Shown piece by piece: positions 15,485 to 64,000 of a DNA stretch of 64,000 nt (positions are counted from its first letter, which is position 1; the number at the start of each line of letters is the position of its first letter). The position numbers were made by a program, and so were the translations under genes. The stretch is taken from positions 30,320,001 to 30,384,000 of the forward strand of contig CM097885.1 of NCBI GenBank assembly GCA_044892525.1, given 5' to 3'. Under the pieces are notes generated by a model, which did no database searches, was not told the origin of the DNA, and was given only the letters and a program-made list of their open reading frames with translations. Source of the stretch: Schmidtea polychroa. Its lineage: Eukaryota.

Positions 15485-15515
<31 letters not shown>

Positions 15516-23204: not shown

Positions 23205-23252
<48 letters not shown>

Positions 23253-25060: not shown

Positions 25061-25389
25061 ATTATTATTAAAATTTGTCTTTGAAAAATATTTCATAAAA
25101 ATTTTCATTAAAAATTATCTTAAAAATTTCCATCTAAAATTATCATTGAAAAATATTTCATTAAAATTTCTATTAAAAATTACTTAAAAAATTATTTCAT
25201 AAAAATTTTCATTAAAAAATTTCAATTCTCAAACACCTTCTATTATTTGTTAATAAATTTTAAAATCTTACTTTAATTTACTTATTACATTACTTATTTA
25301 AAAATTATTACTTTAATTTACTTATTTAAAAATTATTACTTTAATTTACTTATTTAAATTTTTTACCATTGATTACTTAATTTTAAAAT

Positions 25390-26265
25390 TTGGACCATAA
25401 TTTACTGTAATTTAATTTTTTAGAACCATAATTTACTGTAATTTAAAATTTTGGACCTTAATTTAATTTTTTTAGAACCATAATTTACTTTAATTTAATT
25501 TTTAGAACCAAAATTTACTTTAATTCAAAAATTTGGACCATAATTTACTTTTAATTTAATTTTTAGAACCATAATTTACTGTAATTGAAAAATTGGGACC
25601 ATAATTAACCGTAATTTAATTTTTTAGAACCATTATTTACTTTAATTGAAAAATTTGGACCATTATTTACTGTAATTTAATTTTTTAGGACCATTATTTA
25701 CTGTAATTGAAAAATTTGGACCATTATTTACTGTAATTTAATTTTTTAGAACCATTATTTACTTTAATTGAAAAATTTGGACCATTATTTACTGTAATTT
25801 AATTTTTTAGAACCATTATTTACTTTAATTGAAAAATTTGAACCATTATTTACTGTAATTTAATTTTTTAGGACCATTATTTACTGTAATTGAAAAATTT
25901 GGACCATTATTTACTGTAATTTAATTTTTTAGAACCATTATTTACTTTAATTGAAAAATTTGGACCATTATTTACTGTAATTTAATTTTTTAGAACCATT
26001 ATTTACTTTAATTGAAAAATTTGGACCATTATTTACTGTAATTTAATTTTTTAGGACCATTATTTACTGTAATTGAAAAATTTGGACCATTATTTACTGT
26101 AATTTAATTTTTTAGGACCATTATTTACTGTAATTGAAAAATTTGGACCATTATTTACTGTAATTTAATTTTTTAGGACCATTATTTACTGTAATTGAAA
26201 AATTTGGACCATTATTTACTGTAATTTAATTTTTTAGGACCATTATTTACTGTAATTGAAAAAAT
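25390..26265. repeat. Subterminal tandem array of about 30-bp monomers in about 60-bp dimers (ACCATTATTTACTGTAATT..)
   Basis: Seen directly; inverted homologue at 54760-55270. Confidence 0.95.
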
Positions 26266-27501
26266 TTACCACGATTTTTAGTGTAGACCACTTGTTTCTC
26301 AGGACCAAGGAGACCCCCTCACTATAGTCTGAAAATTCCATGCTTTTTTAGTGGTAGTCGGATTTTTGTATTGAAAATCCCAGTACCATCGAGACCCCCT
26401 CACTATTGTGTGAAAATTCCATGCTTTTTTAGTGGTAGTCGGATTTTTGTATTGAAAAGATTTTATTTGTATTGAAAATCCCAGGACCATCGTTTTTGTA
26501 TTGAAAAAAATTTATTTGTATTGAAAATCCCAGGACCATCGAGACCCCCTCACTATAGTGTGGAACAATTGCGTAATCAAAAGTTGCAGCAAAAAAAATC
26601 GTGCAGCAGGGAGCCACTATCTACCTACTGACGTAGTAAAACGAATAAAATACTTTTTATCGTGATTTTCAAAAAAAAGTAGAACATGTTTGGAATCACA
26701 TTTTGATTTACTTGATTGTGAAATTTCAAATTTAATTATTTTTATCTATTATAGTATCATTTAATTTATTAGGAGAAATATGTAAAATTATTATATGGAA
26801 CGCCCCCTTTACCGCTGTTTTTCTTTTGGATATTGTGATAAGGGAACCAAATGGATTATATCATTACAAAGAAATCTGGTATAACGCTCAGAGTATGACA
26901 AATTGTCTATGTAAGTTGAAGTTTAATTATGTCAGATTTGTGAGAGTAGCAAGTATGATGAGAGGTTATATAATTGTTGACTGGATAAAATGGTTGGATA
27001 GACCATTTATGGGTTTATGGCATAAATGATCCATTGCTAAGTCTTGAAAAATATTATACTCAAACCTCACAGAGATTTCCATGTGAGGGTGATGATTATG
27101 ACTGCTTGTTGATGAAAGTAGCAAACTAGAAAATAGAAAATTAAAAGATAGAAGCTGAAAGCCATCAAACTAGAGTTACGGCGGCTGAACCTTTCAAACT
27201 GAAAGTTAACCGATTAGTGCGGCAGATATTCGCCTGCAGTATAAATGGTAGAGGGGATTCGTCCAACTAAGGAAAATCATATTTGATTCGGCTCAAAAGA
27301 AATGGTCAGCACATGCGAAGTATTTTTACTTCATACATATCAACCTCGGAAAATTTGAAATGCATTTATCCACTTAGTACCAAATTATCTTGTCGGTTGA
27401 ATTTTTATTTTAAATAATCTTGTAATGATTAATGCTATTATGATTAATGCTTCACTTTCAAGGAATTAATTCATTGTCATATTTATTTCATTGTTATAAA
27501 C

Positions 27502-38096: not shown

Positions 38097-38609
38097 AATT
38101 TTGTCAACTCGATTCGTTTTCGGTATTTTATTCCCGAATTTGTTTTTGAGTCTTCAATATAAATTATTAGAAAGATATTCATACTGATGGTAAAGGAGGT
38201 GGAAGGGGTGGGGGCGGTAATGAATTAACATTGTTATTAATTTAAGTGCACTTGATTATTCACTTGATATATTCAAAAAACTGATTACGTAATAATTTCC
38301 ATTATTCGAACAAACGATTTAAATGCGATTTAATTAATTTAATAATAATGATAATTATGCGTGCCAGCATTTATACTTATAATACTTTTTCTATATAATA
38401 ATATTTGTAACTTATAATACAATATATATTTTATTTATAAATTTGTTATTTCAATATTCCTAACAAACATTAAAATGTAGGAATTTTTGAACTTGAAGTA
38501 GTATACAAACCTTCGTACTGTAATTCACTTTGAAAAGTTACGAGAAGTAAATTAGGAATTGTTCAATCTCAAAATAGTAGGTAGAAGTGAGCCCACGATG
38601 ACTCATCGT

Positions 38610-38960
38610 TAAGGTCAACTTAAGGTCATAGAAAATTTTGAGGTCAACTTAAGGTCAAATTTTAAGGTCAATGTCATTTTCAGGTCAATTTAAGGTCAAT
38701 TTAAGCCATTTAAAGGTCAAATTCTGAGGTCAAAGTCGATTTTAGGCCATTTTAAGGTCAAATCTTGAGGTCAAAGTCGATTTTAGGCTATTTTAAGGTC
38801 AACTTCTGAGGCCAAAGTCTAATTTTTCCAAATTTTAAGGTCATAGGAAATTTTAAGGTCAACCCCCCTACCCCCTACCCCTATTTTTAAGGTCATAGAA
38901 AATTTTAAGGTCAACCCCCTACCCCCTACCCCTAATTTTAAGGTCAAATCAAGGTCAAAA
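38610..38960. repeat. Subterminal (A/G)AGGTCA repeat array with CCCCCTACCCCCTACCCC units; mirror at 48745-49212
   Basis: Seen directly; 2 C/G-tract units in the left arm and 4 in the right arm. Confidence 0.9.
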
Positions 38961-39464
38961 ATTAAAAATTTTCTAAGTCCATTTAACGAATTACTTTATA
39001 GAAAATTTTCAAAGTCAAAACACGTTTTAATACTACGTTTGCAAATGTCTTTGTTACTCATGCATTTGCATTGCAAATGTCTTTGTTACTCATGCACTTG
39101 TATTGCATATGTCTTTGTATTACACACCTTAAGGATAGAAAAATATTTCTAAGCGAGATCTAAAGTGAATGTGTGTAAAGGGCAATAAATAAGGGTAAAA
39201 TCAAAATTTTTTAAGAAAATACATGTAATTTGATTAAAATTTATGAAAACTATATATATATATATATTTGTTTTATTTTGGTCAGATAATCTATGTGTGT
39301 CTGTATATGAAAACATTGATAAGGAGCAATAAATAATGGACGGTTTTACTCACACACAAGTTTTATATCATTCGAAAGTCTACTATATATATAATACATA
39401 ATTGAATCGAATCAAAATAAGGGTAAAATAAATGGTAAAATAAAATGGTCATTATCAGACATTT

Positions 39465-39524
<60 letters not shown>

Positions 39525-39606
39525 ATCTATTTATTTTAAATAAAAATATGTAATTATGATCATAGTTAATTTAAGCACATATTTATTTCACTTTTCACAA
39601 AATAAT

Positions 39607-39656
39607 TTTAAAATACCACAACGTAATATATTTTCTATCTTAATTTTAATTGGCTG
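39607..39656 (+). promoter_or_regulatory. Putative pPolB promoter motif with inverted CCAAT; mirror at 48072-48121
   Basis: TTTTAAAATACC(A/G)CAACGTAATATATT..ATTTT(A/G)ATTGG is shared with element A (20395-20455); about 65 nt before the predicted ATG at 39718. Confidence 0.55.
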
Positions 39657-39717
39657 GAGAATAAAGTATGCTTTTCATTATAAACATTTTCATTATTACA
39701 AAATAACTTTAGAAATA

Positions 39718-42700
39718 ATGATCACAGACATCGATTACGAAAATGGTATTTTCATTATTTTTTAATTCATTTTAATATATATATATATATATTTATTTTC
39801 TAGATAGCGATTGTGTCATAATTGAAGAACATTTTGTTACTTCGATACCTGCAAACGAATATGGACGAAAAAGTTAAATAATAATAATTCATTGCTTATT
39901 CTTAATTGTCTTTTCCAGGAAATTTTAATGAGGATTCAGTTGATGATTCAGTTGCTTGTGCTGCTGGAACTATTGAATATTTCGCAAAGAAGATAAAATG
40001 TAAGTAAATTACAAAATTTAACTTAGATTTCTAGTTATATATTTCTTTGTTTAAGAAAATTTAAATTAGTAAAAAATGATATTTAATCAGATGTTAATAT
40101 TTAGATGAATTCATTTAAATAAATTTCTTAAAATTAATGAAAATTAGTAATATATTAATTATTAATTAAAATTAGTACAAAGTTAATATATTTACTGAAA
40201 TTATTTTTTAGACAATATTTTAATTATTGATAAGGAATATTATTTTTTACTATAAGTAACCTAATTATAGAAAAGATATTTATTATACCAGAAATAAACA
40301 GAATTCTGTCACTGATGTCAAATTAAAAAAATATAAACTTCTGCTTTTGATATCTCTGAGAATAATTTTCTAAAACAATTTTCATGAAAAATAGGTGAAG
40401 AAATTATATACTTTACCTGTTAAAGAAAAGTATGACTACAAAAACAATTGATGTTTCAGATTTTCAATATATAATATTAACAATTTTAATTGTATTATAA
40501 AAATTTCAGATTTGAAGATAAAAATGTTCATTTATGCAACTCAAATTTTTGCCCAAGTCCTTTGAAGCATAAATAATATACGTATCACATAAATACAAAT
40601 ATATTGATATATAAACTGAAAAAAAAAAGTACAAAGTTAATATATTTACTGAAATTATTTTTTTTAGACAATATTAATATAGTTATTGTTAGTTTATTTT
40701 AACTATATTACGACGATCAACTTTAATTTTATTATAAAAAAAAAATGATGAAAGTATAAATAAAACTTCATTTTAAAATCGAATTTTTATTTGCAATATT
40801 ATTTTTACATTAATCAACTAAGATGAGATTAATTTAAAATTTGATTGCATCACGAAACTTCTAGTATTTCATGTAAGTGAAATTAAAAGTATATGGATTG
40901 TTAAATAATTGTCATATTTCTATAGTTCTTTGTTTAAGAAAATTTAAAATAGTAAAAAAAAAATGATATTTAATCAGATGTTTATTGGTAAATATTTAGA
41001 TATTTAGATTTAGATTTAGATTTAAATAAATTTCTTAAAATTATTGAGAATTATTGAGACTTCCACTCCAAGGGCCATATATAATAAATTAGTACAAAGT
41101 TCAAATTTTAAATGAAATTTATTAGACAATATATATATTTTTTTAACTATATTAAGACGTTCAACATGAATTTTATTATAAAAAATAATGAAAGTATAAA
41201 TGAAACTTCATTTCAAAAATATGAATTGTGATAAAAAAAAAATTGAACAATTTTGAAATAACTAAGGGCATTCAATAATATTGTAACTCATTAAATAAAG
41301 TTTACATAGTGAGCTAAATGCTGCCCTTGTCCATTTTTATGGTGTATAGAGGTGAAAAATAAATTTAGATGCACAATGAAATTTAAAAGTGTAAATCTAT
41401 AAAAAGTTAAAATTTATAAAAAAAAAATTGAAAATTCGAAAAAATTAAAAATTGATGCATGTATGTACGTATGGCAAATAAAAAGACTAGCACAAATACA
41501 ATAAAATAAAATCATCTAGGACATCCACTTAATGATTTATTTTATGAATGATTATAATTGATTTTATCTTATTTTGAATTTGAATAAATAATTGAATATA
41601 CCCTGGACAAATTAACTTAATTATAAATTTTAATATATTAATAATTTTGGAATAATAATAATTAAGATAAATGATAATCAATAGAGATAAATGAATTACC
41701 GATAATATAAATGAAATTCAATATTATAAATAAACCATATAATTAAACCATTTAATGGTTAAAAATAAATAAAACATAAAACATAAAATAATAAAATAAA
41801 TATATTATAAAATTAAATAATTCCTTTTTATATTGCATTTCGCTATATAAACCAAGATCAAAATCAACCTTTCCGCCCATAAAAATATAAACTTTTGAGA
41901 GATGTTTATTGTTAAATATATTTAAAAAGAAACATAATAAAGCAATTGTAATTATTTAAGGCAATTTATACAAACAATGTTGCACCGCAAAAGAACATGA
42001 TGGGAAACAATGCCATGAAGCAATGGAAAAATACTATTTAAGAAATTATTATAATAAAAAATATTATTTATGCCCATTTTGCGAAGCTCTTTTCACTAAG
42101 CCCTATGAAATATTTTATAATGATCACAAAGATCATCTTACATATTTTAAATCTGATAAGAAAGAAATTTTTAAAAAATTATTTAATAACGGTATAATAG
42201 ACGTACCTACTAAAAAACAAAAACTTAATGATAACATCATCATTATAGATGAATCTGATGATGATGATGTTATCGTTATAGGTGAATCAAGGAATTTTTT
42301 AAATTATCAAATTGGTTGTGGATCAACTAATTTGATAGAAGATATTGAAGAATCAGTGGAAGAACCAGTGGAAGAACCGATGGAAGAACCTGTGGAAACG
42401 GAACAAATAGTAGAAGAGGACAATATATGGGATGATTTCCAGATTGTTAATGAATGGGAACCTACTGAAGAAGTCGAGATTGAATCTGACTTGAAAAATT
42501 GTCATAAAACAATTAAAATGTCGTTCAAAAACATGAATGAGATAAATCTACCCGAAAATTTCTCTGAGAAACTATTATCTACAATCAAGGAGATGAAAAC
42601 TGTGAAAGTTCAATTCGGGATAGAATGTGATTTCGAAAAGGATGGAGAATTCCAATCATCAAGATTTTCTAACAAAGCGGTGATGGTAACTGAGAACAAT

Positions 42701-43774
42701 TTTGAAAAGTTTATTGCAGATGGTATTGAAAAGCTGCACGAGAAAATTCATATCAGATCGGAACTTGGAAGCGGATGGCGTCTGATAAGAATAATTGAAA
42801 TAAATTTCAAAATAACTAAGATTTCCGAAATATCCAGATTATCCGGAAGAAATTATATTCCAACTCCGAAAGCCTTAATAAATAAAAATGCATTAATAAA
42901 TGTGATCAACGGAGATGATATGTGTTTCATATACAGTGTGCTAGCCAATTTGAAAAAAGATATCATTATTACTGATAATACAAATGTTGAAAATTATACA
43001 CAGTTCTTATCCGAATTGGTATATAATGAATTAGATATGCCAATGAAATTGAAGGACATTTCAAAATTCGAAAAGCATAACGAAGGAATTGCTATCAATG
43101 TCCTCAGTTACAATCCTAAAAATATGATTGATATCGATAATGTGGATATTATAATGAAACATCCACATATTGATATAATACATCGGACTAAAGTAACTGG
43201 GGTTACACCGATGTATTTACTATTGTTAGAATCGAATGGCCAATACCACTATACTGCAGTTCCAGATTTACAGCGATTAATGAATTGTAGAAAAACTCAT
43301 AGTTGCCCAGTCCGTATTCAATGCAGATGGTGCGAGACATGTTTAAATGGTTTTAGAAGAGAAGATGCTTTTGACAGGCATGTAGCTTTATGCAAGAAAA
43401 ACCAATTGGGCACAACATTATACACGTTGCCAGAAAACTCAGATTTAAAATTTAATGACTGGTCAAAAATGGTAACTCCGCCTTTTGTTATATATGCTGA
43501 CTTCGAAGCTGTTTTACCTCTTGATGAAATATGGGCTCAATCAATTTCCTCATTGGAGTCTCAGCTGCATACCAACAAGCACTGAGAAATTTTTAACATT
43601 GATAGCATGGCTGGGTAAATTTACAATAAGATTTATTTACTCATATCAGTTTGTCAATACTTCATTACATACTGCAGTAAAAACATTGAACGACTTGCCT
43701 TTGACCCGTTCAGTATTCAATACTGCAACCATCATAAACAACAAAGGAATTTTTCCTTATGATTTTGCCACAAG
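39718..43774 (+). pseudogene. Truncated pPolB, left copy. Predicted exons 39718-39745, 39804-39872, 39919-39999, 41961 onward; internal deletion and frameshift at 43529; stop at 43585
   Basis: ELGSGW, DMCFIYSVL, YHY, CETC..H..C and Exo I YADFEA present; after the deletion KYGLNQFPHW..KGIFPYDFAT continues in another frame. No polymerase motifs A/B/C. Confidence 0.9.
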
Positions 43775-46700
43775 TGAGGAAATTGATTGAGCCCATATTT
43801 CAAAATGTGATGTAGATCATACCCTTTCAGATTATGAAATACGATGGGTAATGTTTCTCTGATTTTCCTTTGTTGATTGCATACATTGCATGAGGCTCCG
43901 AGATATATGCCAGTGAAATGATCATGGTCTTTCACTTTCTCTGGCATTGGCTTTTTGCACAAGTAACAATTGACTGCTGTGTGGAATTGCAGCTTTTCCT
44001 GATTTGTCAAAAATTTCATTTGACAATGCCCTCTTGTCTTATAATAAACCTTCACTATATTGTTGACAATATTTTCTACATCCATCAGAAATCTGTATAC
44101 ACAATCTGGTCCAATAAAATGACTATATTTCGTTGACCCAGTAAAATTATTTACCAGTAACAGCCCCGCTGCTATAGGTAAATGTTTTTGGTGTTGTCTT
44201 TCATCAAGAGGTAAAACAGCTTCGAAGTCAGCATATATAACAAAAGGCGGAGTTACCATTTTTGACCAGTCATTAAATTTTAAATCTGAGTTTTCTGGCA
44301 ACGTGTATAATGTTGTGCCCAATTGGTTTTTCTTGCATAAAGCTACATGCCTGTCAAAAGCATCTTCTCTTCTAAAACCATTTAAACATGTCTCGCACCA
44401 TCTGCATTGAATACGGACTGGGCAACTATGAGTTTTTCTACAATTCATTAATCGCTGTAAATCTGGAACTGCAGTATAGTGGTATTGGCCATTCGATTCT
44501 AACAATAGTAAATACATCGGTGTAACCCCAGTTACTTTAGTCCGATGTATTATATCAATATGTGGATGTTTCATTATAATATCCACATTATCGATATCAA
44601 TTATATTTTTAGGATTGTAACTGAGGACATTGATAGCAATTCCTTCGTTATGCTTTTCGAATTTTGAAATGTCCTTCAATTTCATTGGCATATCTAATTC
44701 ATTATATACCAATTCGGATAAGAACTGTGTATAATTTTCAACATTTGTATTATCAGTAATAATGATATCTTTTTTCAAATTGGCTAGCACACTGTATATG
44801 AAACACATATCATCTCCGTTGATCACATTTATTAATGCATTTTTATTTATTAAGGCTTTCGGAGTTGGAATATAATTTCTTCCGGATAATCTGGATATTT
44901 CGGAAATCTTAGTTATTTTGAAATTTATTTCAATTATTCTTATCAGACGCCATCCGCTTCCAAGTTCCGATCTGATATGAATTTTCTCGTGCAGCTTTTC
45001 AATACCATCTGCAATAAACTTTTCAAAATTGTTCTCAGTTACCATCACCGCTTTGTTAGAAAATCTTGATGATTGGAATTCTCCATCCTTTTCGAAATCA
45101 CATTCTATCCCGAATTGAACTTTCACAGTTTTCATCTCCTTGATTGTAGATAATAGTTTCTCAGAGAAATTTTCGGGTAGATTTATCTCATTCATGTTTT
45201 TGAACGACATTTTAATTGTTTTATGACAATTTTTCAAGTCAGATTCAATCTCGACTTCTTCAGTAGGTTCCCATTCATTAACAATCTGGAAATCATCCCA
45301 TATATTGTCCTCTTCTACTATTTGTTCCGTTTCCACAGGTTCTTCCATCGGTTCTTCCACTGGTTCTTCCACTGATTCTTCAATATCTTCTATCAAATTA
45401 GTTGATCCACAACCAATTTGATAATTTAAAAAATTCCTTGATTCACCTATAACGATAACATCATCATCATCAGATTCATCTATAATGATGATGTTATCAT
45501 TAAGTTTTTGTTTTTTAGTAGGTACGTCTATTATACCGTTATTAAATAATTTTTTAAAAATTTCTTTCTTATCAGATTTAAAATATGTAAGATGATCTTT
45601 GTGATCATTATAAAATATTTCATAGGGCTTAGTGAAAAGAGCTTCGCAAAATGGGCATAAATAATATTTTTTATTATAATAATTTCTTAAATAGTATTTT
45701 TCCATTGCTTCATGGCATTGTTTCCCATCATGTTCTTTTGCGGTGCAACATTGTTTGTATAAATTGCCTTAAATAATTACAATTGCTTTATTATGTTTCT
45801 TTTTAAATATATTTAACAATAAACATCTCTCAAAAGTTTATATTTTTATGGGCGGAAAGGTTGATTTTGATCTTGGTTTATATAGCGAAATGCAATATAA
45901 AAAGGAATTATTTAATTTTATAATATATTTATTTTATTATTTTATGTTTTATGTTTTATTTATTTTTAACCATTAAATGGTTTAATTATATGGTTTATTT
46001 ATAATATTGAATTTCATTTATATTATCGGTAATTCATTTATCTCTATTGATTATCATTTATCTTAATTATTATTATTCCAAAATTATTAATATATTAAAA
46101 TTTATAATTAAGTTAATTTGTCCAGGGTATATTCAATTATTTATTCAAATTCAAAATAAGATAAAATCAATTATAATCATTCATAAAATAAATCATTAAG
46201 TGGATGTCCTAGATGATTTTATTTTATTGTATTTGTGCTAGTCTTTTTATTTGCCATACGTACATACATGCATCAATTTTTAATTTTTTCGAATTTTCAA
46301 TTTTTTTTTTATAAATTTTAACTTTTTATAGATTTACACTTTTAAATTTCATTGTGCATCTAAATTTATTTTTCACCTCTATACACCATAAAAATGGACA
46401 AGGGCAGCATTTAGCTCACTATGTAAACTTTATTTAATGAGTTACAATATTATTGAATGCCCTTAGTTATTTCAAAATTGTTCAATTTTTTTTTTATCAC
46501 AATTCATATTTTTGAAATGAAGTTTCATTTATACTTTCATTATTTTTTATAATAAAATTCATGTTGAACGTCTTAATATAGTTAAAAAAATATATATATT
46601 GTCTAATAAATTTCATTTAAAATTTGAACTTTGTACTAATTTATTATATATGGCCCTTGGAGTGGAAGTCTCAATAATTCTCAATAATTTTAAGAAATTT

Positions 46701-48010
46701 ATTTAAATCTAAATCTAAATCTAAATATCTAAATATTTACCAATAAACATCTGATTAAATATCATTTTTTTTTTACTATTTTAAATTTTCTTAAACAAAG
46801 AACTATAGAAATATGACAATTATTTAACAATCCATATACTTTTAATTTCACTTACATGAAATACTAGAAGTTTCGTGATGCAATCAAATTTTAAATTAAT
46901 CTCATCTTAGTTGATTAATGTAAAAATAATATTGCAAATAAAAATTCGATTTTAAAATGAAGTTTTATTTATACTTTCATCATTTTTTTTTTATAATAAA
47001 ATTAAAGTTGATCGTCGTAATATAGTTAAAATAAACTAACAATAACTATATTAATATTGTCTAAAAAAAATAATTTCAGTAAATATATTAACTTTGTACT
47101 TTTTTTTTTCAGTTTATATATCAATATATTTGTATTTATGTGATACGTATATTATTTATGCTTCAAAGGACTTGGGCAAAAATTTGAGTTGCATAAATGA
47201 ACATTTTTATCTTCAAATCTGAAATTTTTATAATACAATTAAAATTGTTAATATTATATATTGAAAATCTGAAACATCAATTGTTTTTGTAGTCATACTT
47301 TTCTTTAACAGGTAAAGTATATAATTTCTTCACCTATTTTTCATGAAAATTGTTTTAGAAAATTATTCTCAGAGATATCAAAAGCAGAAGTTTATATTTT
47401 TTTAATTTGACATCAGTGACAGAATTCTGTTTATTTCTGGTATAATAAATATCTTTTCTATAATTAGGTTACTTATAGTAAAAAATAATATTCCTTATCA
47501 ATAATTAAAATATTGTCTAAAAAATAATTTCAGTAAATATATTAACTTTGTACTAATTTTAATTAATAATTAATATATTACTAATTTTCATTAATTTTAA
47601 GAAATTTATTTAAATGAATTCATCTAAATATTAACATCTGATTAAATATCATTTTTTACTAATTTAAATTTTCTTAAACAAAGAAATATATAACTAGAAA
47701 TCTAAGTTAAATTTTGTAATTTACTTACATTTTATCTTCTTTGCGAAATATTCAATAGTTCCAGCAGCACAAGCAACTGAATCATCAACTGAATCCTCAT
47801 TAAAATTTCCTGGAAAAGACAATTAAGAATAAGCAATGAATTATTATTATTTAACTTTTTCGTCCATATTCGTTTGCAGGTATCGAAGTAACAAAATGTT
47901 CTTCAATTATGACACAATCGCTATCTAGAAAATATATATATATATATATATATTAAAATGAATTAAAAAATAATGAAAATACCATTTTCGTAATCGATGT
48001 CTGTGATCAT
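43732..48010 (-). pseudogene. Truncated pPolB, right copy (657-aa ORF 45705-43732 plus mirrored 5' exons from 48010)
   Basis: Identical to the left copy except M/I in NPKN(M/I)ID; continues through CYLC..DHDHFTG..CNVCN and Exo II FHNLKGYD; homology stops at FPH (43775). Confidence 0.9.
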
Positions 48011-48201
48011 TATTTCTAAAGTTATTTTGTAATAATGAAAATGTTTATAATGAAAAGCATACTTTATTCTCCAGCCAATTAAAATTAAGATAGAAAATAT
48101 ATTACGTTGTGGTATTTTAAAATTATTTTGTGAAAAGTGAAATAAATATGTGCTTAAATTAACTATGATCATAATTACATATTTTTATTTAAAATAAATA
48201 G

Positions 48202-48235
<34 letters not shown>

Positions 48236-49538
48236 AAATGTCTGATAATGACCATTTTATTTTACCATTTATTTTACCCTTATTTTGATTCGATTCAATT
48301 ATGTATTATATATATAGTAGACTTTCGAATGATATAAAACTTGTGTGTGAGTAAAACCGTCCATTATTTATTGCTCCTTATCAATGTTTTCATATACAGA
48401 CACACATAGATTATCTGACCAAAATAAAACAAATATATATATATATATATAGTTTTCATAAATTTTAATCAAATTACATGTATTTTCTTAAAAAATTTTG
48501 ATTTTACCCTTATTTATTGCCCTTTACACACATTCACTTTAGATCTCGCTTAGAAATATTTTTCTATCCTTAAGGTGTGTAATACAAAGACATATGCAAT
48601 ACAAGTGCATGAGTAACAAAGACATTTGCAATGCAAATGCATGAGTAACAAAGACATTTGCAAACGTAGTATTAAAACGTGTTTTGACTTTGAAAATTTT
48701 CTATAAAGTAATTCGTTAAATGGACTTAGAAAATTTTTAATTTTTGACCTTGATTTGACCTTAAAATTAGGGGTAGGGGGTAGGGGGTTGACCTTAAAAT
48801 TTTCTATGACCTTAAAAATAGGGGTAGGGGTAGGGGGGTTGACCTTAAAATTTTCTATGACCTTAAAAATAGGGGTAGGGGGTAGGGGGGTTGACCTTAA
48901 AATTTTCTATGACCTTAAAATTTTCTATGACCTTAATAATAGGGGTAGGGGTAGGGGGGTTGACCTTAAAATTTTCTATGACCTTAAAATTTGGAAAAAT
49001 TAGACTTTGGCCTCAGAAGTTGACCTTAAAATAGCCTAAAATCGACTTTGACCTCAAGATTTCACCTTAAAATGGCCTAAAATCGACTTTGACCTCAGAA
49101 TTTGACCTTAAAATGGCTTAAATTGACCTTAAATTGACCTGAAAATGACATTGGCCTTAAAATTTGACCTTAAGTTGACCTCAAAATTTTCTATGACCTT
49201 AAGTTGACCTTAACGATGAGTCATCGTGGGCTCACTTCTACCTACTACTGTATAATTTCTTTTGTTTTAATTGGATAAATTGCATGTTTTGTCAATTTGA
49301 CTTCAATAAAATAAACTGCACTACAACGTATATCGATTATTCTCTTATGTTTTCTCTTAGAAAATATAAAATTATACCAACACTAAAATATCACTTAAAA
49401 CCAAATTCAGCAAATTACGCTGTTACAGAATATCCTTCCCTGTGCTTTTCCTCTAATAGTGTCAAATCTGAAAGTATGTTGGGCTATATATTTTCTCTAT
49501 TTTGGCTATCTGCCAGATATATATTATTGAAACTGGTT

Positions 49539-50680
49539 AGTAGGTAGTTATTGGCTCCCTACCTCTAAAAAAATTGCGGAAACTCGTTTTTTTTTGCTTT
49601 TTTGATTACGTAATTGCGACAGGAAGCCACTCATATTTTTTTCAATACAAATAGAAGGGGCCTATAGAAAAGAGGCCATTGCGGCAGGAAGCCACTTAAA
49701 TTTTTTCAACACAAATAGAAGGGTCATATATAAAAAAATCAGGATTTCTCTGACTATACTCAGAAGATCTCGATGGAACCTGAGAATTTCAATGCAAAAA
49801 AGGGTCTACACTAAAAAGCCAAGGATTTTTCTGACTATAGTTGGGGAGGGGGTCTCATTGGTCCTGGGATTTTCAATACAAAATTCAATTATCACTAAAA
49901 AAGCATGGAATTTTCCAAGTACAGTTAAGGTGGGTCTCAATGGTCCTGGGATTTTCAATAGAAAAGTGGGTCTTCATTAAAATAGCATGGTAAATTTTTG
50001 AGTTACAGTAAATTATGGTGCAAATTTTTGAATTAAAGTTAATCAATGGTTTAAAATTTTAAAGTTAAAGTAATATTTTTAAATTAAGTAAATTAAAGTA
50101 AAAATTAAAAATAAAAGTAAATTAATGTAATAAGTAAATTAAAGTAAGATTTTTAAATTTATTAACAAAAAGTTGGAATAATAGTCGGTGTTTGAGAATT
50201 GAAAATTTTGATGAAATATTTTTTTAAGATAATTTTTAATGAAAATTTTTATGAAATATTTTTCCGTGTTAATTTTAGATGCAAATCTTTGTGAATTAAT
50301 CAATAACCACATGAAAGTATTGGTTAAATATGTAAATAAAGGTTATATTTGGTTGTTAAGTAAATTATGGTGTAAAATATTAAATTAAGTAATACAAGGA
50401 TAAATAAGCAAATTAAGGTTCAAATTTTTTAATTAAGTAATAAATGGTATAAAATTTTAAATTAAAGTAATTATTTTTAAATAAGTAATGTAATAAGTAA
50501 ATTAAAGCAAGATTTTTAAATTTATTAACAAAAAGTTTGAAGAACCAACAGCTTCTGAGAAATAAATTTTTTAATGTAAATTTTTATGAAATATTTTTTA
50601 GGTCAATATTTATTGAAAATTTTTATGAAATAATTTTCACAATCAATTTTAGATGCAAACTTTTGTCAATTAATCATAAA
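49539..50680 (+). mobile_element. Truncated end fragment of the A/C-type element
   Basis: Starts AGTAGGTAGTTATTGGCTCCCT, then the CTATAGT..GGGGGTCTC..TGGTCCTGGGATTTTCAATA block; 50275-50560 matches 15140-15460. Confidence 0.8.
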
Positions 50681-53569: not shown

Positions 53570-53925
53570 TGATGATTCGTGCATTCTACAAACATATACT
53601 CGGCATTTCTATTTGATATACTGATCTAGAAAAAGAATACTATCAGTTTTTCCCTGGTTCGGAATTCCTATAGAAAAGGATGTTTTGACAATGCTTCTCT
53701 ATCAAACGTTTTCTATTCAAATATCAGAATTTGGACCGACAGAAACTCACTAGTACTACTCACAGAAGAAAATAAATCTGAATATGTTAAATTAGTTTGT
53801 CAAGAGAAAATGATTGGAGCTATTCACCAACAACTTCATAGTTTTCTCGAAGGGTTTTACGAAATCATACCCAAAAATTTGATCTCCATTTTCAATGAAA
53901 AAGAACTTGAACTACAAGTTTCAAG
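53570..53925 (+). pseudogene. Intronless HECT E3 ligase (HUWE1-like) fragment
   Basis: AFYKHILGISI*YTDLEKE and [51 protein letters not shown], with stops and frameshifts. Confidence 0.8.
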
Positions 53926-54739
53926 AGCTCGTTGACTTGAAGATAGTTATGGTCGATTACAGCGGAAAACAGCTGAAGAATGGAAACAGAAGTTCTGTAT
54001 CAAGTTTGTGACTTGCTGTAATGGAAAAAAAATTTTTTTTGTTAAATGTAACTACAAATTATTATTTTACATTTTATTATTTTATTATTATGCTTTTTCT
54101 TGGAGTAGCTTGTGTCGTTACCGCAATATGTATTCATGCCCAATATCGTTTGGATTTCAAATGAGCAATTTTAAGACAGTTAATAGAAAATTATTAAACT
54201 TTTAAAATTATTCATGTGAAAAATTACATTCTAATAATCATTCAAAAAAAATATTAAAAAGTATTTTTCCATTTCATTATTAAATATTTCTCTTTCATCT
54301 TCCTTGTAATAGAAATTCGATTTTCCAATATAACTAGCTTCCTATCTAAATGTTGAGTGTATCTTAATGATTGAAAGCTATCAATTATGCATTATTAGTA
54401 GGGAGTTAGTGGCCCACGGCAGCAATAGGGGGGGGGGGTAAAAAATGTTGCAAACTTTTGATTGCATAACTTTTTCCGTAGACATTTTTTGATTACATAA
54501 TTGTTGCCGTAATGCCCAATGTTTTCTGGGATTTTAAATACAAATTTTTTTTTTTTTTTTTTTTTTCAATAAACAAGCCAAGGATAAATATTATTTGGGT
54601 GGGTCTCCTTGGTCCTGAGAATTTCAATAGAAAAAGGTAGTCTTCAATAAAAAAGCATGGATTTTTCACACTATAGTGAGGGGATCTTCTTGGTCATGAG
54701 AATTTCAATAGAAAAGGTGGTTTACATTAAAAAACGCAT

Positions 54740-55400
54740 AGTAAATTTTTAAAATAAAGTAAATTATGGGTCTAAAATTTAAAAATAAAGTAAATGATGG
54801 GTCTAAAAATTTAAGTAAATCAAGGTTCAGATTTATTTTTGAAATAAAGTAAATTATGGTCTAAATAAGTAAATTATGGGCTAAGATTTTTCAATTAAAG
54901 TAAATAATGGTTCTAAAAAATTAAATTACAGTAAATTATGGTCCAAATTTTTAAATTAAAGTAAATTATGGTTCTTAAAAATTAAATTAAAGTAAATTAT
55001 GGTTCTTAAAAATTAAATTAAAGTAAATTATGGTCAAAATTTTTGAATTACAGTCCAAAAATTTAAATTAAAGTAAATTATGATCCAAATTTTTAAATTA
55101 AAGTAAATAATGGTTCTAAAAAATTAAATTAAAGTAAATAATGGTCCAAATATTTTAAATTACAGTAAATAATGGTTCTAAAAATTAAATTACAGTAAAT
55201 AATGGTCAAAAATTTTAAAATTAAAGTAAATTATGGTTCTAAAAATTAAATTAAAGTTAATTAAGGTCCAAATTTTAAAATTAAATAATCAATGGTAAAA
55301 AAAAATTTAAATTAAAGTTAAATAAGTAAATTAAAGTAATAATTTTTAAATAAGTAAATTAAAGTAATGTAATAAGTAAATTAAAGTAAGATTTTTAAAT
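54740..55400. repeat. Subterminal tandem array of about 30-bp units (AATTAAAGTAAATTATGGT..)
   Basis: Seen directly; inverted homologue of 25250-26265. Confidence 0.9.
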
Positions 55401-55575
55401 TTATTAACAAAAATAGAAGGTGTTTGAGAATTGAAATTTTTTAATGGAAATTTTAATGAATTATTTTTTAAGTAATTTTTAATAGAAATTTTTATGAATA
55501 ATTTTCAATGGTAATTTTTAATGGAAATTTTAATAGAATAATTTTTAAGATAATTTTTAATGAAAATTTTTATGA

Positions 55576-55625
<50 letters not shown>

Positions 55626-55798
55626 TAATATTAATAATATATCAACCAAATACTATACAACACATAAAAAATTAACTAAACACATAAAAATAACTAGACA
55701 CATAACAAAACATATAAACATTAACTAAACACATAAAAATGAACTAGACACATAACAAACATAAAAATTTACCAAATAACAAATGTAAAGATATAAAA

Positions 55799-55804
55799 TT
55801 TATT
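55799..55804 (-). terminator. Putative polyadenylation signal of pPolB
   Basis: AATAAA on the minus strand 8 nt after the stop codon, followed by a T/GT-rich tract (55790-55640). Confidence 0.5.
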
Positions 55805-55812
55805 CAATAAAA

Positions 55813-58800
55813 TTAGTCCTCATCGGACAAAATAACGTCATCGATATCGATGTCATCTTCTCCAAAATCTTCATTTAATTCTTCCTCATCTTCTCCATCA
55901 TTTTCTCCAACATTTTCTGAAACATTTTCTGCAACAATTTCTCCAACATTTTCTCCAATATTTAATTCACTTAATCTTACATGCCCATATGCAAGACTAG
56001 TATTTTGCCCCACCCAAACCCTTTTGTCATCTTTGTTAGTTAGTGCTATTTTTGTGTTTTTAATTGTAAAAATTTGATGATTTTTGCTTGTTATTTTAGT
56101 CTGAGGAACCGAAAAAATCTGGTTAGTGTTATAACAATCCAGGTATGACTGATGTTTTATGTCACTACCTTTCAATGTTACACCTTTAGCCTTTTTTGTT
56201 TCCTCATCACCCAACAAGCTATAACATTTAGGTCTAAGAAAAACCCACTCCTTATATTTAAGACCTTTATTCTCGTCTTTGAACTTTCCAATGACTGAAT
56301 CAAGGTTCTTACTATATAAGGAATGACAACTATTGTAATTGGAAGTATCCAATAAATTATCTCGAACCATTGCAGGTAAAAGAACCTCAAGTTTGCAGTT
56401 AATGACTTCGAGGAAAAAAGAATCTGTATCACCTGCAACGATATTAATTTTACAATTAAACTCATTGCGAAATGATTCCAGATCCTTATATTGCAATTCA
56501 TACATTCTAAGTTTAGATAGATCAAGTACAGATTGACCAATGTAACTCGGTCTATCTAAACATATAGAATCGGAATTCAATAGTGCTGCAATTAAATTAT
56601 CTGCTATTTTAATAGATTTTTTAAAAGTCGGTTTTGACGAATATTTAACTAATTTACCGGCAGTTGTACAAAGACGAAGATTCATTCTTCTCTTTAAATT
56701 TTCAACTGTTTTGCCGTATAAACTATTATTTAGCAATTTATAATAATTTTTATCTAAGCTATTTACGCTTTTTGATCTTAATTCGGTATTTGTATCTATA
56801 TATTTTTTAAAAATTGGTGATTGCTTAAATCTTACACCCCTATTTACACGTGTTACTTTAACACCAAGTTCCAAATATAATTTTAATAATCTCCAATGAA
56901 TAACATAATTAGATTTTGGAAGATGAGTTAATAATAATTTTTCAACCTTAGACCCAGCAGGTTTCATTTTTTCAGCAGCTACAGGGAAATCATCCAACTT
57001 ATCATGAAGCTCAGAAGGAATTACAAGATCAACTTCAAGTGTGTATCCATAAGACAAAGATTCAAGATTTAAATTCCTACATTCATCCATTATTTTATCA
57101 AATCCATCAAGAACCCAACAAAATTCGCCACAAGGTAATGATTGACTTAAAGCCCAGCCATAAAGATTATTAATATCTATATATAGTAACTCAGTGTTCT
57201 CGTCGGTTTTTACGTAATGCTTATTCACAAAAGTAAGACCGCCTCTTATTCCACCCTCATAAAAGCTAAACATTTCGTTTTCAGTTATGAGTTCAATTGG
57301 TTCATTTAAAGACATTAATGCAGAAGACCAAGACATGCCTGGAATTCCGAAATAATTCAATGGTTCCAATCTATTGTGAGCAATGGATTTCAACCGAAAC
57401 TGATGAAAGAAATCAGCCAAAAGAAAACAATCAAGTTTTAGGTAGATCATCATATAATCTAATAAAGTTACGCAATTAGTTTCTACCCAAATCTCCTGAG
57501 CTTTTTCATACTCAAGCTCAGTGACACCCTCCCAGATTGGTGGTAATTCATAAGTAGTTTGGAGAATATCTAAAGAAGTGGCGAAATTATAAGGGAAGAT
57601 TCCTTTTTCACTTACTATGGTGCCAGAAAAAGCAGAATTAGTAAAAGGCAAAGAATTCAAAGTTTTGACTGCTTTAGCCAAAGAATCATTGACAAATTGA
57701 TACGAATCAATGAATCTTAGGCTAATTTTACCTAAATGCGCAATCAAAGATATAAATTTTTCCGTAGTTATTGGGATGCACCCTAAATTCCAATTTTTAA
57801 ATTTATTTAATCCATATTTAAGTATATGGTGCATATCGTATCCCTTCAAGTTGTGAAATACGATAGGCAAAATTTTATTTATTTTCCTATTTACGTTACA
57901 TGTGCTACAAGCTGCACCCAAGTATTTCCCCGTAAAATGATCGTGATCTCTAACAGGATCGACGATAGATTTCATACAAAGATAACAAACAGATGCACTA
58001 ACAAATTGACGTTGTTCAATTTTTGTTAATTTCATCATAGGTTTCCTATCCATTTTATAATAAAAAGGAAGAACCTTATTTAATGCTATATCCTCTATAG
58101 CACTTAAAAAACTCTCGACGCAATCTAAACCTATGAACTGCTGATAAGATTTAGATCCGTCAAAGTTATTTACAAGTAAAAGACCAGCAGATATTGGCAT
58201 GTGTCGTTGGAAATGATCATTATCAGAAGGTAAAATAGCCTCAAAATCTGCATAAACTACAAAAGGAGGAGTTACTGTTTTCGACCAGTCAGTAAACTGT
58301 AATAATTTATTTTGAGGGAAGGTGTAAAGAGTTGTTCCTAATTGATTACGTTTACATAATATTTCATGTTTTTCTAGTGCGTGTTTATTATTAAACCCAT
58401 TCAAACACCGATGGCACCATAATGAACGTATGCGTGTAGGACAACTAGTGTTGATATGACAATTCATTAACTTATTTAAATTACTTATAGCAACGTAATG
58501 GAAATTGTTTCCTTTATTTAATAATAGTAAATTAATTACAGTTCCATTTAAAACTTTGGAACGATGTATAATATCTAAATGTGGGTGTTTTAATACGTAA
58601 TTATCTATTAATTGTTTGTTATTGTCATAAGAAAAAACGTTAATTATTAAGCCTGGATTTTTGGCCTCGAATTTTCTAATATCTTTTAATTTCATGGGTA
58701 AGTCCAATGGATTATATATTAATTCAGATAAATTATAACTGGATGTCCTATTTCTAGCATAACTACTAACCTCATCATATTTTAAAATAGCTAAAATGCT

Positions 58801-60154
58801 ATATAAAAAACATGAATCATCGGTGTTTTTTATATTAATTAAACAATATTTATTTTTTAGATAAGTAGGTGTTTCAATGAAACTCCTACCACTTAATCTA
58901 CTTAGCCTACTTATTTTTGTTATGGTGAAATGTATTTCAGTGATATTTTTTATATTCCAACTGCTTCCTAACTCAGTAATATTAGTAATTTTCTCATTTA
59001 ATTCCTTAATGCCTTCATCAAAAAATGATGCAGTTAAAGGCTTTGCATAATTTGAGATATTATTAACCTTTATTTCCCCGTCTTTTTCAAATTCGATTGT
59101 TATTCCGAATTGAATTTTGACGGAGCCTAATTCGTTAATAATATCTCGTAATTTTTTTATTAGTTGTTCAGGAAATATTATTTCTTTTATATTTAAGTCG
59201 CTTGTATTTAAGCTTAATATTTGATGGGTACCTCTTAGATCTTTTTGTATTATTGGAACATTTCCACCTATTTGTATTATATTTAATCCATCCCAAGAGT
59301 CAAGGGAAATATTATCTAATCCAACCTGGGATTCAACAACCAATCCATCATGGGATTCGACAACCAATCCATCATTGGATTCCACAAAAGGCAATCCGAC
59401 CTGGGATTCAAAAGAAGAAGTATCTAATTTAATTTTTTTATTTTTATTATTTTTTTCTATAGTTGAGGGTCTTTTAAAAACACTATCTTTTTTAAAATTA
59501 AACCTATCTAAATGATTTTTATGTTTATTATAAAAAACGCTATATGTTACGGGGTCACTAGTCTTACATACGGGACATATAAAATAAGTTTTATTATAAT
59601 ATTTTTTCGTATAATAATTCTCCATTATAGAATGGCAATTATTATCATGTTCTTTCGATGAACAATAATTTGGGTAAAGTATACCTATAAAATAAAAATT
59701 TAATAAAAAAAATATAATTTAAATGAAATATTTTAGTAAATGTTTACGCAAAAATTTGCAAATTATTATTATTTTACAAATTTTATTTACTAAAAAATAA
59801 AAATTTACTAAATTAAAAATATTAACATTTACTTAAATAAAAAATTATATTAAATTTCCTTTAAATTATAAAAAGTAATCAATACTTACATTGTAAATTT
59901 TCATTTCGATTTATTGACACATTGACATAATTTTTTTCTTTATTCGTATTACCTAAATTATTAATTAATTAAATCAATAAATTAAAAATTATGTTTACTT
60001 TTTCTTTTCAAATTTCCTTTAATCTTAGATTTTAAATTGTCTTCATTAATATTATCTAAATTAATTAATAAATTAATTAATAAATAAATTAAAATTTACC
60101 AAATTTCTGAATTTTTTCTCGGACATTCATAACGTTTTCTATTAAAGAATTCAT
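55813..60154 (-). CDS. polB: Intact protein-primed family B DNA polymerase (Polinton/Maverick type). Exons 60154-60100, 60055-59999, 59952-59890, 59684-55813; predicted 1348 aa (1270-aa ORF from 59625)
   Basis: Exo I YADFEA, Exo II FHNLKGYD, Exo III YLKLD, KGIFPY, Pol A YIDINNLYG, Pol B KLLNNSLYGK, Pol C GDTDS, RPKCY, KAKGV, DDKR; endonuclease VII-like insert DHDHFTGKYLGAACSTCN. Three GT-AG introns splice in frame. Confidence 0.95.
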
Positions 60155-60746
60155 TTTTAAAGGTTAACTATTTGTTAAATGTGACTAATGATTGATTATT
60201 GTTTATAGATTATTATTGTTTATAGATTATTATTGTTCATAGGAACAAATTCTAACCAATCAAAATCAAGGAAGGGTAGGAAAAAATTAATTTATTTTAA
60301 AACACATTTTGACGCTAAAGTTGACTTATTTAACATTTTCATAATAATTTAATAAAAATAATGTGATGAACCCACAAAGTAATATCATTTTTCATCAAAT
60401 TGTAAAACAGTAATAACGTTTTCATAAAATTGTAACAAAGTAATAACATATTTCAGATAATTTTTCAACAGTTGTAAAATATTTAAGCAAATTGTAACAA
60501 GATTAGAAAATATTACAACAAAGTAGTAACATATTTCAGAAAATTTCAACAAATTTGTAAAATATTTATCAAATTGTAACTAAAATAATAAAAATATTGC
60601 AACAAAGTAATAAAATAATAATGGTAATTAAGACAAATCAATACATTATTTCGAAGACGGACAACAAATTAAAAAGAATATTGTAACTAAAATAATAAAA
60701 ATATTGCAACAAAGTAATAAAATAATACAACATTTTAAACTCTAGA

Positions 60747-61160
60747 TCAATCCATTTTATAGAAAATTAAATTCTATCTATATAATATATGAATAAATAT
60801 CCAAGGAAATTACGTTAACGTATAATAAATACAAATTTATCGTAAAAACATGTGTGTATTACACACAAAACAAGATACATAATTTCTAATCAATCCATTT
60901 TATAGAAAATTAAATTTTATCTATATATTATATGAATAAAATCCTAAGAAAATTACGTTAACTGTATGAAAAATACAAATTTATCATAAAAACATGTGTG
61001 TATTACACACAACATACGAGACATAATTTTTAATCAAGCTATTTTATAGAAAATTAAATTTTATCTATATATTATATGAATAAAATCCTAAGAAAATTAC
61101 GTTAACCGCGCGAAAAATACAAATTTATTGTAAAAACATGTGTGCATTACACACAAAGTA
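60747..61160. repeat. Three tandem units of about 143 bp next to the axis; mirror at 61290-61700
   Basis: Units start at about 60747, 60890 and 61034; each has TACGTTAAC and a TGTG(TG)..TTACACACA mini-hairpin. Confidence 0.9.
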
Positions 61161-61179
61161 TCAAACTGAAATTGTAATT

Positions 61180-61267
61180 GCGCCATGTTGTAGAGAATTA
61201 AATTCTCCCTATACATGGTTACACTTAAATCTCGATCAGACATGTGAAAAGAGACATAAAAGATAAA
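61180..61267. other. Asymmetric central spacer with an internal imperfect hairpin (61183-61218)
   Basis: CCATGT-TGTA-GAGAATT-A-AATTCTC-CCTAT-ACATGG folds back on itself. Confidence 0.75.
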
Positions 61268-62120
61268 AATTACAATTTCAGTTTGATACTTTGTGTGTAA
61301 TGCACACATGTTTTTACAATAAATTTGTATTTTTCGCGCGGTTAACGTAATTTTCTTAGGATTTTATTCATATAATATATAGATAAAATTTAATTTTCTA
61401 TAAAATAGCTTGATTAAAAATTATGTCTCGTATGTTGTGTGTAATACACACATGTTTTTATGATAAATTTGTATTTTTCATACAGTTAACGTAATTTTCT
61501 TAGGATTTTATTCATATAATATATAGATAAAATTTAATTTTCTATAAAATGGATTGATTAGAAATTATGTATCTTGTTTTGTGTGTAATACACACATGTT
61601 TTTACGATAAATTTGTATTTATTATACGATAACGTAATTTCCTTGGATATTTATTCATATATTATATAGATAAAATTTAATTTTCTATAAAATGGATTGA
61701 TCTAGAGTTTAAAATGTTGTATTATTTTATTACTTTGTTGCAATATTTTTATTATTTTAGTTACAATATTCTTTTTAATTTGTTGTCCGTCTTCGAAATA
61801 ATGTATTGATTTGTCTTAATTACCATTATTATTTTATTACTTTGTTGCAATATTTTTATTATTTTAGTTACAATTTGATAAATATTTTACAAATTTGTTG
61901 AAATTTTCTGAAATATGTTACTACTTTGTTGTAATATTTTCTAATCTTGTTACAATTTGCTTAAATATTTTACAACTGTTGAAAAATTATCTGAAATATG
62001 TTATTACTTTGTTACAATTTTATGAAAACGTTATTACTGTTTTACAATTTGATGAAAAATGATATTACTTTGTGGGTTCATCACATTATTTTTATTAAAT
62101 TATTATGAAAATGTTAAATA

Positions 62121-62195
62121 AGTCAACTTTAGCGTCAAAATGTGTTTTAAAATAAATTAATTTTTTCCTACCCTTCCTTGATTTTGATTGGTTAG
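62121..62195 (+). promoter_or_regulatory. Putative pPolB promoter motif; mirror at 60252-60326
   Basis: TTTAGCGTCAAAATGTGTTTT..TTCC(T/A)TGATTTTGATTGGTTAG is shared with element A (20352-20455); about 100 nt before ATG 62293. Confidence 0.6.
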
Positions 62196-62292
62196 AATTT
62201 GTTCCTATGAACAATAATAATCTATAAACAATAATAATCTATAAACAATAATCAATCATTAGTCACATTTAACAAATAGTTAACCTTTAAAA

Positions 62293-64000
62293 ATGAATTC
62301 TTTAATAGAAAACGTTATGAATGTCCGAGAAAAAATTCAGAAATTTGGTAAATTTTAATTTATTTATTAATTAATTTATTAATTAATTTAGATAATATTA
62401 ATGAAGACAATTTAAAATCTAAGATTAAAGGAAATTTGAAAAGAAAAAGTAAACATAATTTTTAATTTATTGATTTAATTAATTAATAATTTAGGTAATA
62501 CGAATAAAGAAAAAAATTATGTCAATGTGTCAATAAATCGAAATGAAAATTTACAATGTAAGTATTGATTACTTTTTATAATTTAAAGGAAATTTAATAT
62601 AATTTTTTATTTAAGTAAATGTTAATATTTTTAATTTAGTAAATTTTTATTTTTTAGTAAATAAAATTTGTAAAATAATAATAATTTGCAAATTTTTGCG
62701 TAAACATTTACTAAAATATTTCATTTAAATTATATTTTTTTTATTAAATTTTTATTTTATAGGTATACTTTACCCAAATTATTGTTCATCGAAAGAACAT
62801 GATAATAATTGCCATTCTATAATGGAGAATTATTATACGAAAAAATATTATAATAAAACTTATTTTATATGTCCCGTATGTAAGACTAGTGACCCCGTAA
62901 CATATAGCGTTTTTTATAATAAACATAAAAATCATTTAGATAGGTTTAATTTTAAAAAAGATAGTGTTTTTAAAAGACCCTCAACTATAGAAAAAAATAA
63001 TAAAAATAAAAAAATTAAATTAGATACTTCTTCTTTTGAATCCCAGGTCGGATTGCCTTTTGTGGAATCCAATGATGGATTGGTTGTCGAATCCCATGAT
63101 GGATTGGTTGTTGAATCCCAGGTTGGATTAGATAATATTTCCCTTGACTCTTGGGATGGATTAAATATAATACAAATAGGTGGAAATGTTCCAATAATAC
63201 AAAAAGATCTAAGAGGTACCCATCAAATATTAAGCTTAAATACAAGCGACTTAAATATAAAAGAAATAATATTTCCTGAACAACTAATAAAAAAATTACG
63301 AGATATTATTAACGAATTAGGCTCCGTCAAAATTCAATTCGGAATAACAATCGAATTTGAAAAAGACGGGGAAATAAAGGTTAATAATATCTCAAATTAT
63401 GCAAAGCCTTTAACTGCATCATTTTTTGATGAAGGCATTAAGGAATTAAATGAGAAAATTACTAATATTACTGAGTTAGGAAGCAGTTGGAATATAAAAA
63501 ATATCACTGAAATACATTTCACCATAACAAAAATAAGTAGGCTAAGTAGATTAAGTGGTAGGAGTTTCATTGAAACACCTACTTATCTAAAAAATAAATA
63601 TTGTTTAATTAATATAAAAAACACCGATGATTCATGTTTTTTATATAGCATTTTAGCTATTTTAAAATATGATGAGGTTAGTAGTTATGCTAGAAATAGG
63701 ACATCCAGTTATAATTTATCTGAATTAATATATAATCCATTGGACTTACCCATGAAATTAAAAGATATTAGAAAATTCGAGGCCAAAAATCCAGGCTTAA
63801 TAATTAACGTTTTTTCTTATGACAATAACAAACAATTAATAGATAATTACGTATTAAAACACCCACATTTAGATATTATACATCGTTCCAAAGTTTTAAA
63901 TGGAACTGTAATTAATTTACTATTATTAAATAAAGGAAACAATTTCCATTACGTTGCTATAAGTAATTTAAATAAGTTAATGAATTGTCATATCAACACT
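62293..64000 (+). CDS. polB: Second (mirror) copy of pPolB, open to the window end. Exons 62293-62347, 62392-62448, 62495-62557, 62763 onward
   Basis: Reverse complement of 60154-58447; ATG GAG AAT (MENYY) at 62822. Absent from the ORF track, presumably because no stop falls in the window. Confidence 0.9.

Follow-up and report, generated by a model that had tools for sequence, protein, structure and literature searches.

The window analysed here comprises 64,000 nucleotides of Schmidtea polychroa (assembly GCA_044892525.1, contig CM097885.1, positions 30,320,001 to 30,384,000 of the forward strand; G000:C1:30320001-30384000), within an AT-rich, eukaryotic assembly of 781 Mb. From position 54397 onwards it is occupied by part of a 13,607-bp palindromic element with a pPolB gene on each arm. 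The element is confirmed to represent a true family and not a one-off rearrangement, and we consider it to be, probably, a semi-autonomous derivative of Polintons, propagated as a fold-back palindrome and integrated in trans. Positions beyond the window are given below as window-equivalent ones, i.e. in window numbering carried past 64000 along the same contig.

Structure of the window element

The outer terminus, beginning with AGTAGG, is located at 54397..54415 (plus strand; matched exactly in the genome 187 times forward and 185 times in reverse, against 0 for the control), next to the left copy of a 6-bp target-site duplication, ATTATT (54391..54396), the right copy of which follows the far end beyond the window. 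Inwards from it there are subterminal tandem arrays with 31-bp, 39-bp, AAT and 49-bp units (54743..55771) and the pPolB main exon (55813..59684, minus strand), which holds an intact open reading frame (ORF) of 1270 amino acids (55813-59625). Upstream of the gene, 143/144-bp direct repeats (60677..61251) vary in copy number among element copies. Two inverted stretches of 2,733 bp, 58447-61179 and 61268-64000, are 100% identical and separated by 88 nt. The mirror arm (61268..64000, plus strand) runs on to its end at window-equivalent 68003 and includes the mirror pPolB main exon (62763..64000, plus strand, intact to the stop codon beyond the window) with a second intact ORF at G000:C1:30382822-30386631. 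Alignment of the two arms over 6,743 bases shows three substitutions and three gaps, the latter amounting to 75 nt.

The original prediction, made from the window letters, had described the AGTAGG end, the tandem arrays, the intact outward pPolB, the 143-bp repeats and the 88-nt gap, all of which are present. It also anticipated a mirror end near 68050, a second intact ORF and a size of about 13.6 kb if symmetric, and these expectations were borne out by the sequence beyond the window.

Copy number, ends and insertion

All 37 scored protein matches (22,231 candidates) were stop-free and approximately 100% identical, and 30 of them formed 15 divergent pairs. A 26-base pPolB marker matched 627 genomic sites exactly; of the first 100 listed, 76 made up 38 divergent pairs. 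Together with 675 matches to the junctions of the arm with a central module (see below), this gives an estimate of about 300-340 copies. It had been considered that most copies could be ordinary multi-gene Polintons and the window copy a one-off rearrangement; instead, divergent pPolB pairs recur genome-wide as a family. A second pPolB variant in the same genome also forms such pairs (10 of 17 listed matches). The pairs of termini spanned 12-15.1 kb in 38 of 44 cases, and a second terminal subtype of the element is present. For the 24 terminus pairs within range of both lists, the marker was found on both arms in 18, on one arm in three and on none in three. The target duplication was 6 bp in all 14 copies tested (11/11 and 3/3).

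Searches with tblastn at E < 0.01, using two integrase queries from the same genome, gave no integrase match in the arms or in 12 centre loci, and no ATPase, capsid, protease or TBP match was obtained there either. Furthermore, no integrase motif was present inside any of ten divergent pPolB pairs, and the arm had no further substantial ATG-initiated ORF and no resolvase or telomere-resolving gene among its ORFs. An integrase hidden in longer centres was considered and rejected, none being found in the 12 centres. These arms, in which integrase, ATPase, protease and capsid were without match, support the view of a replicon reduced to pPolB, with the inverted repeat as its body. The self-sufficiency implied by that view had to be given up: the element produces a 6-bp target duplication upon integration, yet has no integrase gene, and judging from this gene content integration must occur in trans.

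The centre of the palindrome

The arm|module junctions (334 + 341 matches genome-wide) formed 46 pairs among the first 100 listed. The module enclosed by them is variable, 227-2,590 bp long (median 1,078 in the 46 pairs), non-palindromic and bounded by AGTAGT ends of its own; it is flanked by mirror sequence, and not by a direct duplication. Both junctions were available in 15 of 26 centre loci, the others being too short a stretch, deleted, or occupied by another element. In 14 of the 15 complete centres symmetry ends 7-30 nt inside the module. One type of module end is constant, being found on one side in 13 of 15 centres, on both sides in one and on neither in one; the first 200 nt are 98% alike (median) on the constant side vs 90% on the other. 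The changing ends resemble those of free elements and are identical to them in at least one listed case. The module is a remnant of a second Polinton family, hereafter X.

The window copy has undergone a deletion across the axis that took away the module together with some 90 bp of the right arm, so that the 88 bp at 61180..61267 represent the unmirrored end of the left arm and not, as first supposed, the normal centre of the family; the resulting loop is unique among the 26 centres. In run X1, whose sample is not necessarily that of the assembly, twelve contigs pass from 61269 into the module. Folding of the spacer (-12.3 kcal/mol, z -2.8) included 10-11 paired arm bases per side and was therefore not used.

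At L060 (G000:C1:93881600-93885150) a palindrome has an AGTAGG-ended mini-element of about 210 bp at its axis, mirror-flanked, i.e. the same architecture from different parts. At L030 an X-type end has entered a copy of the family only a few bases in from its terminus, and at G000:C1:197686511-197714929 one family copy (13.9 kb) occupies the centre of another (28.4 kb).

Family X

The module end pattern has 2,634 matches in the genome. In the first 16 Mb of the contig there are 36 free pairs of X ends, 5.9-28 kb apart (27 of them at 12-18 kb) and none below 5 kb, and all seven short X-end pairs sit at palindrome axes. The module as a free-living miniature inverted-repeat transposable element was accordingly rejected for this region. 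Both free X copies that were checked have 6-bp duplications. Of 18 listed X elements, a pPolB motif and an integrase motif, one of each, occur together in three of 16-17 kb, and ten are devoid of both. One copy of 17.2 kb carries in its right half genes for an ATPase-linked TBP, an integrase, a capsid-like protein and a Peptidase_C5; its left half has an outward pPolB, 49% identical to that of our element over 90 residues. Complete members of X are ordinary Polintons of 16-17 kb, and the palindromic element thus corresponds to the left half of this layout, doubled.

It should be added that the multi-gene X Polinton at G000:C1:4159947-4177111 has TBP at mirror positions on both arms, with a pPolB lacking the downstream motif; apparently, 3.2 kb or more of one end has been overwritten with a copy of the other. 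A bipartite organisation of Polintons, suggested by this element, was dropped: the left half has its own pPolB, and other X elements have pPolB plus integrase. The X termini are put together from two GC-rich 16-base units, for which a small set is used in many combinations, and these units recur inside the module. The genome as a whole is rich in Polintons, with 4,760 matches to a pPolB motif of the lineage, 3,061 to a Polinton integrase motif and 825 to one TBP subfamily, mostly unpaired.

Arm history

The arms were compared in 11 copies with both arms available, the top-scoring ones of about 300. Within a copy the arms differed by 0-5 substitutions in 6,409 columns, whereas arms of different copies differed by a median of 14 (220 comparisons over the same columns). 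Thirty-two variants private to one copy occur on both of its arms, and 17 differences are confined to one arm, none of them common to copies. Since ordinary duplex copying would hand one-arm differences to the daughters, equalisation of the arms must take place upon every insertion or immediately ahead of it, and the differences confined to one arm date from after insertion. The pattern of variants thus shows re-equalisation of the arms in each round, most likely with a panhandle fold-back as the step.

The pPolB gene

PF02945 was matched by all 31 aligned homologues and PF03175 by 18 of them, while the element's own protein as query gave a weak match to PF02945 only. The protein contains exonuclease, polymerase and OTU-like Cys/His motifs. 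The order of domains was adopted from PMC11071308. A search of PDB sequences with the protein gave no match.

The region between pPolB and the direct repeats had been regarded as a promoter region; such a region is there, and it also carries three small predicted exons with GT-AG borders, phase 1, in frame with the main ORF. These leader exons, predicted from splice dinucleotides and frame on the minus strand, are exon 3 (63 bp, 59890..59952), exon 2 (57 bp, 59999..60055) and exon 1 with the start codon (31 bp, 60100..60130); their mirrored counterparts on the plus strand are at 62317-62347, 62392-62448 and 62495-62557 (span 62317..62557). Their landmarks are intact in 28 of 30 arms. No splice joint was seen among the listed contigs of the sequencing runs, which are short.

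Compared with a piece at another place in the genome that is 88% identical (a single pair, 272 codons), the gene had a ratio of nonsynonymous to synonymous substitution rates (dN/dS) of 0.12. Because the motifs are intact and purifying selection is indicated, we infer that the palindrome replicates with its own pPolB. In a quick version of the pPolB tree, with one sequence dropped as too short, the protein was nested among Polinton pPolBs, in a clade of 27 sequences (SH-aLRT 99), among them that of a complete Polinton with TBP.

Proposed origin and propagation of the palindrome

The reading we favour would proceed as follows. Half of an ancestral Polinton (outer end, pPolB and promoter) would have become joined, upstream of the promoter, to family X sequence with terminal inverted repeats. 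During strand-displacement replication, the 3' X end of the displaced strand could pair with the inner X end and be extended along the arm. The product would be an arm, the module and a mirror arm, each tip bearing an origin for protein priming. Insertion of the palindrome would then fall to complete Polintons, acting in trans through their retroviral-like integrase. Such a fold-back accounts for the mirror flanks of the module, for the symmetry ending a few bases inside it and for the equalised arms. One module end has repeatedly been exchanged with free X ends; by way of mechanism, the far X end may be captured anew from co-replicating X molecules, which would leave one constant and one changing end.

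Several observations weigh against this reading. Among the first 100 listed matches, 8 junctions and 24 pPolB markers were unpaired and may or may not represent a monomeric form. The outer ends of the element are AGTAGG and those of X AGTAGT, and the X-type (TBP-family) integrase motif occurred in none of 16 listed AGTAGG-ended pairs. The dN/dS value comes from one pair with its second member in a rearranged locus; the tree is the quick one, with many close sequences lacking gene context; and the arm comparison, with 11 of about 300 copies, is biased to young ones, the copies being the top-scoring ones with both arms available. Moreover, no listed piece of the sequencing-run contigs spans the window stretch, and the element is known here from genome sequence.

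Why the doubled form is kept may be related to size. Arm plus module amount to 48%, and the palindrome to 82%, of a complete Polinton of 16.5 kb. As described in PMC4189039, adenovirus vectors undergo rearrangement when shorter than about 75% of the wild-type length, and those of 15 kb are packaged as direct and inverted dimers; undersized protein-primed linear DNA is thus recovered in both dimeric forms. Those are laboratory vectors without integration, whereas packaging of the element would be a conjecture from its size. A packaging floor is a plausible reason for doubling, and we put forward, as a speculation, that doubling may be kept as it restores a length fitting helper capsids; sizes of 12-15 kb could also result from constraints on replication or from deletion-limited decay. 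A bolder version, which we hold as a rather doubtful possibility, has a stable, polymerase-only satellite of an animal Polinton cycling between a single arm with a captured helper end and the fold-back palindrome, with doubling selected for helper-capsid length.

The main rival of the favoured reading is full-length panhandle repair, which requires no monomer. Here a single ancient fold-back would have been followed by ordinary transposition with very long terminal repeats, the arms being homogenised by panhandle repair or by conversion after insertion. Nearly all integrated copies are indeed complete palindromes, every one has the same arm|module junction, as does even a pair whose pPolB is of a different variant, and the X Polinton with TBP on both arms suggests that arm copying is general. 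However, the 17 one-arm differences persist, so conversion after insertion is not erasing them, and the constant and changing module ends, the latter like free X ends, fit repeated capture and renewed fold-back better. We regard this rival as unlikely overall.

The original prediction suggested instead that the palindrome could be a dimer formed in the replication of a linear DNA, protein-primed at one end and with a hairpin telomere at the other. Perfect arms around an 88-nt loop in the window copy and the homogenised arms speak for it; yet that loop is a deletion private to one copy among 26 centres, the usual centres are variable, non-palindromic modules of 0.23-2.6 kb with Polinton-type ends, and the arm ORFs include no resolvase or telomere-resolving gene. 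A fixed short hairpin loop at the axis is absent. The hairpin-telomere replicon is largely refuted and has very little probability left, although a transient fold-back intermediate is still the likely route, and in this modified form the original idea survives.

Still less is to be expected of a segmented Polinton, of which the element would be one segment and its partner would bear integrase and capsid genes and no polymerase, in the manner of bidnaviruses. Many X-ended elements of 12-15 kb do lack the pPolB motif, and two of 18 listed X elements, of 12.5-13.6 kb, have the X-type integrase motif without it, but X-ended elements of 16-17 kb carry their own pPolB and integrase (3 of 18 by motif, a fourth by the 49% identical fragment), and the partners are therefore not dependent on the element.

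Perfect palindromes are a familiar long-read artefact, and no listed piece spans the stretch, but fold-back chimeric reads as a source of an assembly or library artefact are extremely improbable given differing flanks with matching 6-bp duplications in 14/14 copies, slightly different arms, hundreds of loci and the arm|module junction in the 12 contigs of X1.

Relation to known systems

With Polintons/Mavericks the element shares the pPolB lineage and catalytic motifs, AG-initiated ends, subterminal tandem repeats, a target duplication of 6 bp and a length near the low end of the range given in PMC10748475 (13-25 kb, with 100-1,500-bp repeats and 5-8-bp duplications). It departs from them in an inverted repeat of about 6.7-6.8 kb, two polymerase genes, a nested remnant of another family at the axis and the lack of integrase, packaging ATPase, protease and major and minor capsid genes. 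Snap-back, or copy-back, defective genomes are likewise palindromes in which one genome end is copied in mirror image; they depend on helper functions (PMC13506859), as the element probably does for its integrase. Those described there are non-coding and transient, whereas the element keeps an intact polymerase and is stable in the germline with hundreds of insertions. In its manner of working it would resemble a snap-back Polinton genome able to replicate itself and integrated in trans. Cytoplasmic linear plasmids of the pGKL type, treated in PMC11071308 as polinton-derived by loss of the capsid module, are also reduced pPolB replicons; unlike the element, with its spliceosomal-type introns and chromosomal insertions, they are multi-gene, cytoplasmic and non-integrating.

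The linear plasmids kalilo and pAL2-1 offer another parallel. A hairpin/duplex deletion derivative of kalilo has reportedly been found, going by a title in a reference list. Integrated kalilo/pAL2-1 plasmids have long inverted repeats on either side, attributed in PMC1864894 to panhandle intermediates, so that the ends of a terminal-repeat element adjoin long mirror copies of neighbouring DNA. They are mitochondrial, with no integrase or target duplication in that account, and the mirrored DNA is host mitochondrial DNA and not a spreading polymerase arm.

Among public sequences, 91 loci had a related pPolB; an integrase match was present in 20 of the 24 loci of at least 8 kb (two of these being the same contig), and none of the 24 had pPolB on both strands. 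An inverted repeat above 300 bp was found in 1 of the 91, which is no proof of absence, since short-read contigs would collapse palindromes. A 57% relative adjoins capsid and protease genes. Single-sequence scans of viral and metagenome contigs gave no relatives, while alignment scans did find them. No palindromic, polymerase-only Polinton was found in the literature covered (Repbase, Dfam, subscription papers and preprint supplements lying outside this scope), in line with the initial failure to recognise a described family. A Dugesia preprint reports Maverick expansion with no palindromes in its main text, and the palindromes of a Halocafeteria preprint are 52-nt terminal ones. According to PMC8097293, Polinton replication has been modelled and not observed, and animal Polinton particles have not been seen.

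Other palindromes and ends in the window

A second AGTAGG-ended palindrome lies at 38576-49246, with perfect arms of 4,034 bp and a centre of 669 bp. It contains two truncated pPolB genes that converge and so have the opposite polarity to those of the element, with which they share about 52% identity; there is no 6-bp duplication at its ends, and the left end abuts a capsid-gene fragment (38473-38577). An older, degenerate, non-coding palindrome at 15160-23680 (blocks of 77-97%) is weakly similar to the interior of a gene-less X element. More AGTAGG-type ends, with subterminal arrays related to those of the element, were located at 25060-26629, 49539-50680 and 9925, and the broader AGTAGG-type end pattern has 3,724 matches in the genome. 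A HECT-domain fragment (PF00632, E 1e-13) at 53630-53935 is about 460 bp to the left of the insertion.

Implications

Elements of this kind would go entirely unnoticed in searches such as those of PMC10748475, which call for several Polinton genes inside 20 kb. At 300 copies of 13.6 kb, the near-perfect palindromes of 13-15 kb would add up to about 4 Mb, which would bear on the stability of the host genome and on its assembly. A young, high-copy family with arms recording each replication round may serve as a natural read-out of panhandle replication. Furthermore, the size floor makes it possible to test concretely whether capsids are a stage of transposition. If the satellite cycle with doubling selected for capsid length were true, the lack of free helper-ended pairs under 5 kb (0 of 36) would be a trace, left in the genome, of a particle stage that is obligatory for the transposition of Polintons.

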